A DNA stretch of 64,000 nt from Candidatus Poribacteria bacterium (GCA_965218095.1 OZ244587.1:2592001-2656000); one strand, 5' to 3'; positions 3,190-21,160 are shown, counted from the first letter of the stretch. Translations and numbers: made by a program. The notes: generated by a model from the sequence alone, not told the origin.

Positions 3190-4629
3190 TTATCCCTGTT
3201 TTGCCAGTGTCTTTTTCGCCTCCTTATAAATCTGCGCGTAAATCTTATCACGGGGGACACAACCAGCGGCGAATTGACCGAGCGGATTCGCCTTCGCACG
3301 CATCAACGCTGTGCAGCAGCTCACGGCGACACAGACTTTTTTCTTGACCATTTGCCCTTGTTCTATCGTGTCCTGCGCATAGTTGGGATACGCCAATGCC
3401 CCGCGTCCGACGGCGACAATGCTCACACGCCCATCTCGGATATTCGCTTCGCCGGCGTTGACCAAGTATCGCTGCAACCAGCTATAGCCGGTACCGACAA
3501 TCGGCAGGTCTGGATAGGCGCGCTGGATTTCCTCTGCCAGCCGAATGTGCCGGTCAACGCCGACCAACGGGTGTTCCGGCGTCTCGTAGCCATCAATCGG
3601 TGGGCGTTCAAACGGACGACCGATGTGTGGGTTGAAATATGGACTTCCCGTGGTGACGTTAACCAGTTTGACGCCAAGTTCTTTGAGCATGCCGACCAGC
3701 TTGATTGGTTCGGTCATGTCCGGTTGCGGCGGATTGGTTTCATCAACGCCAAAGCCGTAAGGGTAAGGCGTTGGGATGTCCCGTGGGACGCCGACCGTTG
3801 TTTTCGGGTCTTCCATGTAAGCCACGCCGTCGTAAACGTTCAGTCGCGTGGCAAGGATTAGCTCATCCCCAATCTCCGCCCGGATCTTGCCGATGATGTT
3901 TTGGATAAACCGGATTCGGTTTTCAAAACTGCCGCCGTACTTCCCTTCCCGTGTCTTTGCGGCTAAAAGTTCGGAAAGCAGGTAGGTATGACATTGCTTG
4001 AGGTCAACAAAGTCAAATCCGATTTTCCACGCCAACTTTGCGGCTTCGACATAAGTATCCTCCAGACGCTCCAGATAGTCATCGCTCAAGACGGGATAAT
4101 CGTCGGGAATGGGGATTTTGTTTTTCTTATCGATCAGCGTCACTTTGTCAACGATCGGGTGGCGAAACGCGATTAACGGCTTCTTGTAGCTATATCGCCC
4201 TGAGTGGGTCAACTGCATTCCAACGATGACCTCTTCATTTGCGCCGAATTCCTCTCGGTGAACATCCCGCGTCAAATTGAGGGTCGACTCGATCGAGGTC
4301 GCCGTTTCATCGTTGATTATGAGTTGACGGCTGTTTGCCTTCGCCTCATCAAAGAGCGCCGTTGCCTCACCCCAGATCAACTTCGCACCGCCACGCCCGA
4401 AGCGCTCCCAACGGCGGATGGTAAGTTCGCCCGGTTTGCCGTTGAGCGTGCCGTCACACCCCTCCATCGGGTGGATACCGAATGCGTTGCCTGCGACTTT
4501 GTGTCCAATCTGCACCGGCTCCAAGAGTTTCTCGATTTTTTCTTCGAGCCGGATGCTTAAGCCGAGTTCAGCAATCTCAGCCCGGAGCGCATTGATGTCT
4601 CGATAACGGAAATGTTTCTTTTTTAGCAT
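3190..4629 (-). CDS. NADH:flavin oxidoreductase (Old Yellow Enzyme family)
   Basis: HPMEGCD, GGAKLIWGEA, QLTHSGR, CHTYLLSE, YGGSFENR. Confidence 0.9.
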   Translation of the reverse strand: MLKKKHFRYRDINALRAEIAELGLSIRLEEKIEKLLEPVQIGHKVAGNAFGIHPMEGCDGTLNGKPGELTIRRWERFGRGGAKLIWGEATALFDEAKANSRQLIINDETATSIESTLNLTRDVHREEFGANEEVIVGMQLTHSGRYSYKKPLIAFRHPIVDKVTLIDKKNKIPIPDDYPVLSDDYLERLEDTYVEAAKLAWKIGFDFVDLKQCHTYLLSELLAAKTREGKYGGSFENRIRFIQNIIGKIRAEIGDELILATRLNVYDGVAYMEDPKTTVGVPRDIPTPYPYGFGVDETNPPQPDMTEPIKLVGMLKELGVKLVNVTTGSPYFNPHIGRPFERPPIDGYETPEHPLVGVDRHIRLAEEIQRAYPDLPIVGTGYSWLQRYLVNAGEANIRDGRVSIVAVGRGALAYPNYAQDTIEQGQMVKKKVCVAVSCCTALMRAKANPLGQFAAGCVPRDKIYAQIYKEAKKTLAKQG

Positions 4630-4951
4630 CAGTCTGATTTCCTTTTTGACATTCGTCACATCTTCTCAAATTGTTTCACGGCCTTCATCGCTTTCAGCGT
4701 GCCAATCTGTCTCAACGCCTGAACAGCCACACGAATTTCAATATCCTCTGTCTGTTGTACTCCTGACGCGATACTGCCGGCTCCGAAGGCCATTGTTGCG
4801 TTGGCATATCGGATTGCCATGGCATGATAGACTATTCTGTCAGCGTTTGCATTTGATTGAAATTTGGGCTTTGGGTGAGAGGCTGAGATTAGCAAGAGTT
4901 AATTTAGGTCCTCCTCCTCTTCAGCGGATTACGGAAGTCCGTCAGACTCCG

Positions 4952-5682
4952 CTATCGCTCAGTTTGAATAATTCGGATAACGTAACTGCCTTTCGGAAAT
5001 TCCTTCGTGTAGGCAAACTCCCCATCGTAGTTGCGAACGTCCATCGCTGTGAAATCTTCGTCCGCAACTTGCACTTCCATCCCCTGCGGCATGAGATTAC
5101 CAATCAGCCGCTTCACATTTGGCCCGCGCTCTCCGGGCGGAATGATGAATTCTTTGATTTCCCCTGAACGCCCTTCCTCAATCGCCGTTTGGTGGTAAAG
5201 ATAGAAATCCCTGAGCAATTCCGCTCGATGCACCGCGGTTGTCATGCCTGTCACCATGGCGGCGTGAAGTGGTGACGGATACCCTCTTGGATATGGAGTG
5301 TTGTTTCGTCACCTCGTTTAATCTGGATGCCTCTCGCCGATGCCTGCTCGAAGGTCATCCCGATTGCGCCTTGAAACGTGGGCCAGCTCTCGCCGTAACC
5401 AGGATAAAAGGAATCAAAAATCTCTGCCGTGAAGTAATCGAACCCGAGCTTGTCAAACGCTTCACCGATGGCTTTGCCGTAAATCTCCCACCACCTGATC
5501 GTCTGCTCTGGAAGGTTCTTATTGATTGGCTTTGCGAGCGGCGCGAAAAAGTATGTGCTGTCCGGTCCCATCTCGTAGTCGATCCCCAGGAACATAGCCT
5601 AACACGGATTCAATGGTTGGAACGCCTTCGCGATAAACCCCGCCCGGATAAAATTCAAATCCCAAGGTCACTCTCCTCATTT
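4952..5682 (-). pseudogene. M14 zinc carboxypeptidase remnant
   Basis: Fragments FEFYPG..ESVLGY, FDSFYPGYGESWP, GMTFEQAS, FPKGSYVI in shifting frames. Confidence 0.65.
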
Positions 5683-17116: not shown

Positions 17117-17297
17117 GGTGAAATCCCCCTATTACAAGTTTTAGAAAGTCGATTTCGGACATCGGTCGGTTGCATTGAAAGCACAACCGTATCGAATTAC
17201 GATGGTTCCGACTTTTTAGATAGGCTCTTAATACAATCGGAAGGGTAAGGCGAATTTGCACTCATTCTTAACATGAGCCCGGTGGCTTTTATCGGCA

Positions 17298-18925
17298 TTA
17301 TCTCCACTCATCAATACAGACGCTATTTTGATAATCGCATCCCATCATCCGCCAATACCCATTTGTCTCCCCGCCAACGACGACCACATGAATATCACCC
17401 ACGCGAAATATAGGTATCAACTCATCTTCCGCGGCTTTAAGCCGGGTGGCATAGGGTTCCTCCCCGTTTAACGCTCGTGGGAAGACGTAGTTCTCTATCA
17501 GTTGATAATCCCAATAAACGCCAGCAGACATTGTTGCGTTATCGTGCAGCCATCGGATCAGTTTTTCCTTGGTATCGAATCCGCCCCGATTAACAAATTG
17601 TCTCGCTGTGATTGGGTCCAATACGAGCGTGGGTGGATTGTGAGGATTCATCCCCCGCAGCATGTTGGTCACATGCTCGCGCCAGTGCTTCTCTCGCAGC
17701 CCCAGATTGAATGTGGTGGATCGACACCCCGTAAAGACACTTACCACGCTGTCTTCCGGTTTAAAGCCATGCTGCACATGAAATGGCTCCCACGGACTCC
17801 GTTCCTCATTCTCGGCAAAGGTGATGCTGTTATAAGCATAGCTGTTTCCCTGCGACCCCATATACGTCCGTCCCGGATCAGATCCGCCCTGCAGATTCTG
17901 AGACAGCAAACCGTATGCTCTCCCAATGGCAGCGTTGGCGTGATTGTACGGTCCCATCGCCCCGATTTCCCAGTTCATCCTAATTTCATGGCGAACCGGC
18001 CCATTCACCACCACCATGGCGGCCATTGAACTGGTCGTACTGCCTCGTGCGGTGACTCTAGTCGATGCCAGGGCGAGGATTACCGGAAAATACGCCGGGC
18101 TTGCGCCTGCCATCACCGCATTGATGGCAACCTTCTCCACCGTGTATTCCCAGGCTTCCCATGTCGACGTGGGCCGCATCTGGCCGACCACCTCATCCGG
18201 GCGATGACTCGTCCCCGCCAGCATCTGAGCCACCCGTTCTTCGGTTGGGAGGACAATTGGCAGCGTATCCGTCCACTGATTCTCCAAAAAGAGACGATGC
18301 AAGTTCTCCACCGTATCCGGTTTAACGAAGCGTGGCGTCGATCGATCAAAACTGACTTTTTGCGTGTCCGCTTCGTTCAGCGGCTGGGTCAGCGCGTCGA
18401 TCACCTCCGTCATAACCGGGCGACCGGTGACAGAGTCGTTTCCGTCTATGTACGCCCGTAGCTCGGCCGGGGACTTGCCCATGACCGGCTGGGGGACGAA
18501 GACGAACCGCTGGTGCGGCATACCTTTCGCGTATGCAACCTGCTGAACCACGTCCTTGAAGGATTCCGTCTGGATGGAGGCTGTGGGAACACTGTACTCA
18601 CTTTCCAGCGTGATGCAGTGCTCGGCGACCGCCGGCGCACACGTGCTTCAGTGGCCTACGGCGATGACCGCCGCATCTCCCTGCTGCTTGATTTCCTCGA
18701 ACAACGCTGCATCTCGTTCCGTATACACGCCAGACTTTCGCCGGAATTCTGCCCTCACGTGCGGCATGTGCTCGGTGAACCAGGCCTGCATCTGCTGCAT
18801 CAGAATGTCGCCATCGTCAAATCGGCAGTCGACTAGATACACCGTTTTGCCATCTAAGCGATTCAGCCGTGGTGTATCGTGGGCGGATAACCCATGGGGT
18901 TAAGGACCACGATTTTCTCGCTCCC
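17298..18925 (-). CDS. UGSC-family selenoprotein (in-frame UGA at 18648-18650); 5' end damaged
   Basis: ORFs 18648-18842 and 17298-18551 are in frame via GH-UGA-STCAPAV; LPIVLPT, VEKVAINAVMAG, ENEERSPW; frameshift near 18872. Confidence 0.75.
18618..18640 (-). promoter_or_regulatory. SECIS-like stem-loop after UGA
   Basis: GTGC-GC-CGGC-GGTC-GCCG-A-GCAC starting about 7 nt after the UGA, G-containing apical loop. Confidence 0.6.
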
Positions 18926-19102
18926 GCTTGCAGTTAATCCAGCACTCCCTTGTTCCTGAATCTCTCCCGAAACCCGTCAATGTTCCCTGTCGCGTCAAAG
19001 TATAAAGGGGGAAGAAAGTATAATAACCTTTCTTCCTTGCCTTCCCTCTTTCTAAGTCTCGAAAGCATCTATAAGAAAGTGACATTTTCTTTTTTGGTTT
19101 TA

Positions 19103-19917
19103 GGTTCTGTTGACATTTCAAGGGAGCCATATAAGAGTGGAGACAAAGCTGAGAAATCCAAAATAACGGATAGCTAACTTCTCGAACCGAGAGAAGATGC
19201 GGCGATACCATTTTATCTTGTTAATGAAACATTCAACCCGATGTCCCTCTTTGTACAGATGTTTGTCGTAATCTCTTTGATCCACACGATGACTTTTGGG
19301 CGGTATCACCGCAATCGCTCCATTCGCCTCAATAACCGCGATAAAATTGTCGGAGTCATATCCCTTGTCTCCAATCACATACTCGCTTTTATATCCAAGT
19401 ATCAACCCTTCTGCTTCCGCTATGTCGTTTCTTTGACCGGGCGTCAGATGTATTCTTAGGGGATTACCCAGGCCGTCAACGGTGATGTGATTTTTTGTAC
19501 TGAATCCCCCGCGAGAGCAGCCTAACGCTTGGTTTTCAGTGCCACCCTTTTTTTTTCGGCACCTGCCGCACACGGGTGCGCTCGAATGATTGTACTGTCC
19601 ACAATAAGCGACTCGATATCGGGGTCAGAGGCGAAGTGGTGGTGCATCTGTGTGAAGCCCCCTTTGTCGCACCACCGAGCAAACCGCTTATAGAGGGTGT
19701 TTACCATAGGTGTCTGGCAGAAGTCTCCATTGAGCACCGCTACGGGTCGCCCAGAGAACAGCTTCGATAAAGCGGCGTGTTGTCGCTTCGTTGCCAACAT
19801 AGATGGTGGGACAAGTTAGAAGAAACGAGTATATCTTTTTCCATTGGTCATCGGGTAAGGTTATTGGCATCATTCTTCTATTATGCCACAACCTTATACT
19901 CAAATGTCAACAGAACC
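19103..19917 (-). mobile_element. IS5-family (IS427-like) element, 815 bp, transposase probably inactive
   Basis: 16-bp perfect TIRs, TA duplication; LPDDQW, SGAQWRLLP, VDSTIIRAH, A-run frameshift near 19550, SRGGFSTK, GDKGYDSD, VECFINKIK; extra frameshift near 19700. Confidence 0.92.
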
Positions 19918-20882
19918 TAGTACCAGGCTGCCTTGTCCACTACGTTGCGCAGCGGCTCACCGGCGGCAAACCGACGCGCATTTTCGAGGATGACCTGAAA
20001 TCGGCGCTCCGGGATGTTCTCTGCGTCCCTCAGTGCAACGTGAGGCGTCAGCAGGACGTTTGGCAGCAGCCACAGCCGGTGATCCGCGGGCAGGGGCTCC
20101 ACCTCGAACACATCCAGCCCGCACCCGGCGATCTCACCGCGCTCGATCGCGTCCGCAAGATCATCGATTTTCATCGTCTTACCGCGACCGATGTTGATGA
20201 GGTAGGCCGTGTTCTTCATCAACCGAAAACGTTGAGCGTTCCACATCCCCTCGGTTTCCGGCGTGTGCGGCGTTGTCGCTATGACGAAGTCCGCGCTTGG
20301 GAGAAGGGCGTCCAGGTCTTCTGGCGTGTGCATCTCAACAAATGGGAGGCCATATTCCGGCCTTGGATCCACGCCGATCGCCGTCATGCCAAATTCTGTA
20401 CATAGCCGGGCGGTCTCATGGCCGATGCCGCCAACGCCAACGATCAATGCTGTCGCTTCAGCAAGGTTGATGTACGGGATTTTGGGAGCATGGGCATCCC
20501 ATCGCCGTTGTCGCTGCGCCTCGACGTAATAGGGCAGACCACGTGAGAGCGCCAGCAGAAACATCATGATATGGTGACTGATGTGGTCGGAGTAGATACC
20601 GCGCGGGTTGCAGACCACCACGGGGTGCTCGATCAGTTCCTTGTAGTAGTAGCCCGGAAAAGGGCCCGCATCCGGATTCTGAAGCCATCGCAGCTTTTTA
20701 GTGACCCGGAGCCCCTCGGGGGGCGCCCAGCCGTATGCCGCGTCGGCGTCGACGATCTCACGGCGTGCATCTTTGTCCGTCTCTGGCACGGCGACCCGAT
20801 ACTGGGAAAGGGTTTGCTGCAGGCGTGCGGCCCACTGCCGCTTGTAATCGTCCTGCGGCGGCATCATCACAAACTTGAGCAT
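19917..20882 (-). CDS. D-2-hydroxyacid dehydrogenase
   Basis: GVGGIG, PHTPET, INIGRG, LDVFEVEPL, LTPHVA. Confidence 0.92.
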   Translation of the reverse strand: MLKFVMMPPQDDYKRQWAARLQQTLSQYRVAVPETDKDARREIVDADAAYGWAPPEGLRVTKKLRWLQNPDAGPFPGYYYKELIEHPVVVCNPRGIYSDHISHHIMMFLLALSRGLPYYVEAQRQRRWDAHAPKIPYINLAEATALIVGVGGIGHETARLCTEFGMTAIGVDPRPEYGLPFVEMHTPEDLDALLPSADFVIATTPHTPETEGMWNAQRFRLMKNTAYLINIGRGKTMKIDDLADAIERGEIAGCGLDVFEVEPLPADHRLWLLPNVLLTPHVALRDAENIPERRFQVILENARRFAAGEPLRNVVDKAAWY

Positions 20883-21160
20883 GGTACACGTTCCTCCGCA
20901 ATCGTAAAGTTTTCGTACAAAACGTCTCATTTTCGGTAAAACACAATTTTTTTATTATACCACAATCTGTATCAGTCAGAACGATAGTATACAAATCGTC
21001 GAGGCGAACCCTTCGATTGGTGGGTGGTAGAGTAGTGAGTCGTAGCGGCGAAAAATCACCACTCACCTGCGTACCAATGTAAACCACCACCTTGACCAAT
21101 CATGAAAAAATGATTGAATGCCCCATCCTAGGTCTGGGACATCTTATCGAAGATAAACCG

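Follow-up and report, generated by a model that had tools for sequence, protein, structure and literature searches.

The closest described relatives of the gene examined here are the UGSC selenoproteins. The gene lies on the minus strand of a stretch of 64,000 nucleotides (nt) from a Candidatus Poribacteria bacterium (GCA_965218095.1 OZ244587.1:2592001-2656000), the whole of which is called the window in the following. Where PMC1976440 (2007) mentions UGSC, it is described as 'a selenoprotein of unknown function'. The section on this family in Zhang and Gladyshev (2008; PLoS Genet, PMC2398784) reports a 'UGSC-containing protein' with a UxxC motif, U being selenocysteine (Sec), and counts 255 Sec forms and 21 cysteine (Cys) forms in GOS. 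A 'UGSC/Unknown_1' fusion is described there as well, with an alignment in Fig S1A. UGSC is listed among the predicted selenoproteins in a review of 2022 (PMC9312934) and in another of 2026 (PMC13188914), whose entry calls the functions of this group largely uncharacterised. An earlier reading of the window from its sequence alone (the sequence-only reading) had taken UGSC-type proteins for predicted selenoproteins of unknown function, which agrees with the entries in both reviews. A full-text literature search for 'UGSC' yielded no functional study.

The gene of the window resembles the UGSC/Unknown_1 fusion, as far as it is described in PMC2398784, in having an N-terminal UGSC-type UxxC domain followed by the same C-terminal domain. 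The block AVNGVMAGCRPEYMP...NGP of Fig S1A corresponds to KVAINAVMAGASPAYFPV...VNGP in the window, and the block AV(N)AVMAG.PEY...NGP is common to both. In the fusion reported there and in the subfamily of the window, Sec forms predominate and Cys forms are few. Differences were found at four points. At the position of the Cys conserved in the motif AVMAGC of the published alignment, the window has Ala, as do the 16 sequences of alignment A1 without exception; among the relatives seen, L105 has the Cys. The motif of the window reads U-S-T-C, its copy is frameshifted, and the model obtained here appears flavodoxin-like, whereas PMC2398784 guessed at a thioredoxin-like fold. The fusion is no peculiarity of this locus; a large subfamily shows it as its usual architecture, and it was published in 2008. 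This kind of gene was already described in 2007-2008, and the window copy adds one member. That the locus is a genuine Sec gene, belongs to the long subfamily of UGSC/Unknown_1 fusions and has suffered damage at its 5' end is, in our estimate, roughly 85% probable.

Selenocysteine codon and downstream hairpin

The list of open reading frames (ORFs) contains 18648..18842(-) with 64 amino acids (aa) and 17298..18551(-) with 417 aa, both in the same frame. Translation of 18935..17295(-) with TGA read as U gave one open frame, NRLDGKTVYLVDCRF...AVIAVGH-U-STC-APAVAEHC...DEWR, with exactly one recoded codon. This frame opens just past TAA 18903-18901 and closes at TAA 17300-17298, and it was returned as a 100% self-match with '1 TGA' inside. 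The proposal of two ORFs joined by UGA in a UxxC motif was thereby confirmed. The gene had also been called hidden, which is correct only in so far as gene callers split it; a near-identical database protein, P0001, begins just past the UGA.

Homologues were collected with a word-indexed protein search, in which 8000 candidates were scored and 7489 passed E 1e-5. The best 120, which were inspected, comprise two classes: miscalled Sec forms of 397-444 aa that begin just past the Sec position, and full-length proteins of 546-558 aa, which by a hand count account for 40 of the rows. GH-C-STC was present in all ten full-length database homologues that were aligned, and two relatives carry the NCBI name 'UGSC family (seleno)protein'. 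At the nucleotide level, two sets of loci were compared. The best 80 of 530 confirmed genome loci have TGA at the Sec codon without exception (67 recognised with an initial pattern and 13 with a looser version of it), and all 80 share the UGSC plus Unknown_1 architecture. The 80 metagenome loci came from a scan seeded with a Cys form; TGA was found in 32 and TGC or TGT in 44, three are cut by the contig end and one is broken. The 44 Cys codons belong to 37 motifs of GH-C-STC type and seven GH-C-SNC. Pooled, 112 of these 160 related loci have TGA and 44 have Cys at the Sec position, and Trp or Arg occurred in none of them. The check for a Cys/Sec alignment in homologues, named by the sequence-only reading, came out in its favour. 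The records of the Sec loci are labelled Chloroflexota, Latescibacterota, Poribacteria, Rokubacteria/Methylomirabilota, Binatia, Armatimonadota, Gemmatimonadota, Opitutales, delta- and gammaproteobacteria, Acidimicrobiales and others.

The read-through protein matched the Pfam family PF24696 (UGSC family; gathering threshold 25 bits) with 73.3 bits and E 3.5e-20, protein residues 2-137 corresponding to model positions 23-157 of 172. The genome, a single contig of 6.35 Mb, has the complete Sec machinery above curated cut-offs, as had been proposed for checking: selA (605.7 bits), selB (353.7 bits, about 16 kb before the window), tRNA-Sec (selC, 76.6 bits) directly after selB, and selD (371.1 bits; G000:C1:5447425-5448348, L013). 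The selD gene contains one in-frame TGA; therefore selenophosphate synthetase is itself a selenoprotein in this genome.

Bacterial selenocysteine insertion sequences (SECIS) of the E. coli fdhF type are hairpins starting about 11 nt past the UGA, with a G and a U in a small apical loop some 22-23 nt from the UGA. The hairpin with a GGTC loop noticed earlier in the window is present at the corresponding place (Table 1). It resembles the fdhF element in position and in its G-U-containing tetraloop and differs from it in stem sequence. The lower stem is formed by G11-C33, U12-A32, G13-C31 and C14-G30, followed by an internal loop; the apical stem of C17-G28, G18-C27, G19-C26 and C20-G25 (CGGC/GCCG) closes the loop G21-G22-U23-C24. 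Its folding energy is -12.8 to -13.2 kcal/mol. Rfam gave no match at E <= 10 on 18450-18750 and has no model to score the hairpin.

In comparison across loci, the SECIS-like structure proved to be conserved in Sec forms only. The apical pairs were formed in 100-101 of 101 distinct Sec-form sequences, whereas pair 17-28 was formed in none of 33 distinct Cys forms. The GGUC loop occurred in 100/101 Sec forms versus 7/33 Cys forms and the full set of eight pairs in 37/101 versus 0/33, and the mean folding energy of nt 10-36 was -12.8 kcal/mol for Sec forms versus -6.1 kcal/mol for Cys forms. The codons of P-A-V-A behaved in the same manner: in 75 distinct Sec-form 45-mers they were CCG (75/75), GCG (74/75), GTC (74/75) and GCC (75/75), in contrast to free variation in 33 distinct Cys-form 45-mers. 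Since the Ser, Thr, Cys and Ala codons flanking them vary in Sec forms, it is specifically the four hairpin codons that are frozen. Only one change was observed in the stem: L051 and the X3 strain have U in place of C20, and a G-U pair is retained.

By this comparison UGA 18650-18648 is predicted to be decoded as Sec: SelB and tRNA-Sec would read it, directed by the hairpin starting 11 nt downstream. For the subfamily, the data establish a Sec codon with decoding signal and machinery, an interchange of Sec and Cys at the UxxC and an obligatory fusion to Unknown_1.

Several results weigh against this assignment. As a single fold the hairpin is unremarkable for a GC-rich stretch, as 61 of 200 shuffles folded as well as the 31-nt piece (z = -0.39) and 29 of 200 as well as a 76-nt piece (z = -1.16); its support thus comes from the cross-locus comparison and not from the single fold. 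The stem is invariant and offers no covariation, so a constraint on the RNA is demonstrated but not pairing as such, and the frozen sequence could reflect sequence-specific recognition. Sec in members of this family is predicted by comparison rather than by experiment, and the motif is U-S-T-C, not U-G-S-C. The NCBIfam equivalog NF041046 was not reached by the window (66.2 bits, cut-off 125), nor by the intact orthologue L046 (77.4 bits), and the Cys form P0076 scored 57.2 bits. As the short UGSC gene of the same genome reached 157 bits, we regard the long form as a divergent subfamily and not as the equivalog. 

The damaged 5' end and alternative readings

The relatives begin with M..EKIVVMNPMGYPPxIxQLGMAPRLxxLDGKTVYLVD, and an N-terminal segment of NP.GYPP type was found in 80 of 80 relatives as well as in the short UGSC gene of the same genome. 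In the window copy the segment NP.GYPP...APRL does not run in the main frame; SEKIVVLNPMGYPPTIHHG and a stop codon lie in another frame. Translation probably once began at GTG 18910-18908; GGGAG lies ten nt upstream of it, at 18925-18921. In a DNA alignment the gap of 16 columns (Table 1) follows directly after CCCACGAT, the T-I codons of the conserved NPMGYPP segment. The deletion removes the codons equivalent to KQLGMA of the relatives and shifts the frame, and because of this frameshift the first 22 positions of the PF24696 model are absent. It has thereby put the conserved first 30 or so residues of the window copy out of frame. The first canonical start of the main frame after the frameshift is GTG 18842-18840. 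The 5' segment had been reported out of frame near 18872, close to the junction at about 18875/18874, and the suspicion of a copy in decay, or of a start at GTG 18842, matches a real 16-nt deletion.

We consider it rather probable that the window copy was recently inactivated by this deletion. The lesion is read as recent because the copy has one unique change at columns conserved to at least 97%, which equals the median of 146 orthologues. The same figure, together with a frame that is otherwise intact, speaks against a pseudogene. So do RNA-library contigs, which cover parts of the gene, both the UGA and the deletion site included, at a depth of 2.5-4; those of run X9 cover 18615-18715 and 18756-18920 at a depth of 2.5-3.2. 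This coverage is a weak hint of transcription, as DNA carry-over is possible. Large parts of the gene are at depth 0 in these contigs, from which no conclusion is drawn.

Alternatively, the gene could still be functional by re-initiation at GTG 18842, which would give a selenoprotein without its first 33 or so residues. The intact downstream frame without excess of damaging changes (1 versus a median of 1) is in line with such a restart, as are the RNA-library contigs on both segments, the presence of the same allele in contigs of three studies and the distance of only 21 nt between the stop and the GTG. On the other hand, the missing segment occurs in all 80 relatives and in short UGSC proteins and is modelled at high confidence, GTG 18842 lies inside the first beta strand of the domain, and no obvious Shine-Dalgarno sequence precedes it. 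Two strains differ by three non-synonymous and one synonymous change, which are too few to test and give no sign of constraint. A restart is possible in our view, though doubtful; any fate of the window copy other than inactivation or restart at this GTG appears improbable.

An assembly or sequencing error behind the 16-nt gap, with the real gene intact, is conceivable in a genome of one single long contig, and the assembly may itself derive from one of the read sets. Logan contigs of the runs X1 (18638-19126), X3 (17200-19126) and X5 (18735-19126), which come from three studies with unrecorded library type, nevertheless span the site with 0 gaps and no inserted or deleted letters relative to the window. 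Run X3 represents a distinct strain with four substitutions and the same 16-nt gap. Worked out by hand, they comprise Gly to Val and Thr to Ala, both in agreement with protein P0001, one silent change of a Leu codon, and Ala to Val in the SECIS codon. Moreover, a loss of 16 nt is not a typical homopolymer error, and this explanation is very unlikely. The reading of TGA 18650-18648 as an ordinary stop, either between two genes of 64 and 417 aa or as a decay mutation like the other internal stops of the genome, has on its side the agreement of gene callers, database proteins of 430-444 aa beginning just past the TGA and the many copies of an insertion sequence (IS) in the genome, but it is already contradicted by the identical TGA column in 112 loci under more than ten phylum-level names with Cys in 44 others, by one Pfam domain match (protein residues 2-137) that spans the TGA and joins both halves, and by downstream RNA sequence frozen in TGA forms only.

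In L203, a metagenome relative, the N-terminal domain is likewise out of frame and a stop precedes the PVMGK motif, which points to either another broken copy or an assembly error.

Domain architecture, relatives and possible function

The intact orthologue L046 (547 aa, 76-row alignment) was modelled with a mean predicted local distance difference test (pLDDT) of 95.8 and a predicted template modelling score (pTM) of 0.93; the high pTM suggests that both domains pack as one unit. In this model the Sec domain appears flavodoxin-like and Sec97 stands between strand 90-96 and helix 101-116. Residues 1-32, which are lost in the window copy, have a pLDDT of 92-93, and GTG 18842 maps to residue two of the first strand.

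The fused domain had been estimated at 420 aa. The fusion was confirmed, but the domain has only about 350 aa plus a linker. Comparison of this C-terminal domain with Pfam and NCBIfam revealed no family, only noise matches at E 0.04 to SDR models. Against the PDB, phmmer gave 0 hits and the A2 profile only MarA at E 2, and the 30 nearest clusters of the Atlas have no common Pfam family. With Foldseek nothing was found for the whole model at E <= 0.001. The best Foldseek match, class I fumarate hydratase (E 7.5e-4), was rejected with a template modelling score of 0.27 and a root-mean-square deviation of about 17 A. The fold of the C-terminal domain is without a convincing solved counterpart. 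Conserved acidic residues of this domain lie in WTD, TVEK and AENEE. Its family is large, comprising 3976 representative clusters at E <= 0.001.

The domain also exists in stand-alone paralogues of about 315 aa with 35-46% identity, present in most relatives and once in the genome studied. In a survey of 60 relatives the long form was found in G005 only (76% identity, cut by the contig end); 44 others match via the stand-alone paralogue only, and one shows a weak UGSC match with TGA. Since the closest full-length relatives have 76-80% identity and labels of other phyla, the gene probably moves horizontally. The stand-alone paralogue of the genome (L044:1201-2148; G000:C1, about 2456954-2457550) keeps the Cys of AVMAGC. 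It adjoins a gene for an M81/MlrC-type metallopeptidase, as do the paralogues in two of five relatives' loci inspected (L031, L036).

A second UGSC gene of the genome (G000:C1:130678-131184, L205), with the motif U-G-S-C and a single in-frame TGA, encodes the short form of about 170 aa and adjoins a PhyH-family dioxygenase gene. Short UGSC proteins (NF041046, PF24696) share with the long form the Pfam family, the N-terminal segment LDP/NP...APRL..L.GK and the location of Sec at a strand-to-helix turn. Unlike the long form, they are without the extra domain of 350 aa.

PrdB and GrdB (PF07355), known from D-proline and glycine reductases, are likewise comparable to UGSC in that their UxxC directly follows a hydrophobic beta strand and precedes a helix. 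With hhalign, the U and the C of UGSC were matched to those of PrdB-like sequences in an alignment of 47 columns, at a probability of 1% and E 0.053 from shallow alignments (Neff 2.4 and 1.6), and PF07355 had no hit on the window protein at E <= 0.01. These values show no significant homology, and PrdB/GrdB serve as an analogy only, namely for a Sec subunit whose substrate would be bound by a partner domain. A separate gene of PrdB type also occurs among the relatives. This selenoprotein gene (Pfam GRDB, about 245 aa) was found in 35 of the 60 relatives' genomes searched; it has FLTPV-U-PLC in the 12 loci fetched (L207-L218), and plain ORF lists break it at the TGA. In the genome of the window it was not found with the GRDB family model.

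Two redox links were seen among the 80 genome loci, whose neighbourhood is otherwise not conserved. In 11 of them, L105 and L114 included, a thioredoxin-reductase-like gene (CATC/CASC) lies directly downstream on the same strand; it scored 321 bits with TIGR01292, just under the cut-off of 343. In three of the 80, an Rdx domain (SelW-like, CxxC) is fused in frame ahead of UGSC. These triple fusions of Rdx, UGSC and Unknown_1 (L064, L065 and L066, at about 3512-5563) come from three loci of metagenome-assembled genomes, two of them recorded as Anaerolineae/Anaerolineales and one as 'uncultured bacterium'. A cluster found as neighbour in 77 of 80 loci was rejected, as it consists of antisense shadow ORFs of the gene itself, and a CMD/AhpD-like neighbour cluster was mixed with overlapping ORFs and not used.

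From the model and these contexts a possible mechanism can be outlined. The intact protein, of about 547 aa in relatives, begins with an alpha/beta UGSC domain, whose U-x-x-C selenol/thiol pair is placed after a beta strand, where a helix starts, and which would pack against the domain of about 350 aa. The U-x-x-C pair may cycle between selenol/thiol and selenenylsulfide and hand reducing equivalents on to a substrate bound by the C-terminal domain; partners of thioredoxin-reductase, thioredoxin or Rdx type might recharge it. Against such a relay stands that the contexts suggesting it are in the minority (11/80 and 3/80). We tentatively suggest that the long proteins could be new self-contained selenoenzymes, in which the selenol of the flavodoxin-like Sec domain attacks a substrate bound by the 350-aa domain, whose fold would be new to the PDB. 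In such an enzyme, the Sec domain might be a very distant cousin of PrdB/GrdB, and a dedicated thioredoxin-reductase-like flavoprotein or a fused Rdx might recharge it.

Neighbourhood and significance

The features of the locus are collected in Table 1. The IS element lies between the selenoprotein gene and an upstream 2-hydroxyacid dehydrogenase gene, 190 nt upstream of the old start. In the genome at least 40 copies with 91-100% identity occur, the window copy included (40 of 184 candidates scored). Read depth over the element is hundreds of times that of its flanks, with a jump and loose ends at 19101/19102 and 19924/19925. The dehydrogenase ORF (19917..20930, minus strand) has its stop and last codons inside the terminal repeat of the element (19902-19925). 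Because the ORF ends in this repeat, the element may have replaced the original 3' end of the dehydrogenase gene. Beyond the element, this D-2-hydroxyacid dehydrogenase gene and a gene for a methylisocitrate-lyase-like protein follow on the same strand, and a Bax1-I family gene is located downstream of the selenoprotein gene. A scan for promoters and terminators detected no sigma-70-like site upstream and no terminator after the gene, and is not informative for this organism.

Table 1 Features of the selenoprotein locus, with positions counted from the first letter of the window
Feature	Position	Strand	Remarks
C-terminal domain of about 350 aa, 'Unknown_1' (Zhang and Gladyshev 2008)	17301..18350	-	without Pfam/NCBIfam family
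Main frame of the selenoprotein gene	17298..18863	-	521 codons (NRLDGK... to DEWR), open if TGA is read as Sec
UGSC domain, part left in main frame	18351..18863	-	PF24696; intact orthologue modelled as alpha/beta, flavodoxin-like
SECIS-type hairpin	18618..18640	-	GGUC loop 18630-18627; nt +11..+33 from the U of UGA
Predicted Sec codon TGA in GH-U-STC (UxxC)	18648..18650	-	same column TGA in 112 related loci, TGC/TGT in 44
GTG, candidate re-initiation site	18840..18842	-	21 nt past the stop of the remnant; putative
Frameshifted remnant of the original 5' end, MVLNPMGYPPTIHHG	18863..18910	-	15 codons; stop TGA 18865-18863
Junction of 16-nt deletion	18874..18875 (about)	-	16-column gap versus 5/5 relatives in DNA alignment
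IS element	19102..19924		823 bp; two-ORF DDE transposase (minus strand); 24-nt terminal inverted repeats

For the annotation of this genome, the split 'hypothetical protein' is to be corrected to one selenoprotein gene, which was probably broken only recently, in a genome rich in IS elements. The family it belongs to is large and mostly Sec-dependent, occurs under more than ten phylum-level labels and contains a large domain without a Pfam entry or a convincing solved structure. A sharply defined SECIS, confident models of both domains, a Sec domain that appears flavodoxin-like rather than thioredoxin-like and the links to thioredoxin-reductase-like and Rdx proteins provide starting points for biochemistry. 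If the long proteins are indeed self-contained selenoenzymes, the stand-alone Unknown_1 paralogues would be a Sec-independent version of the same chemistry.

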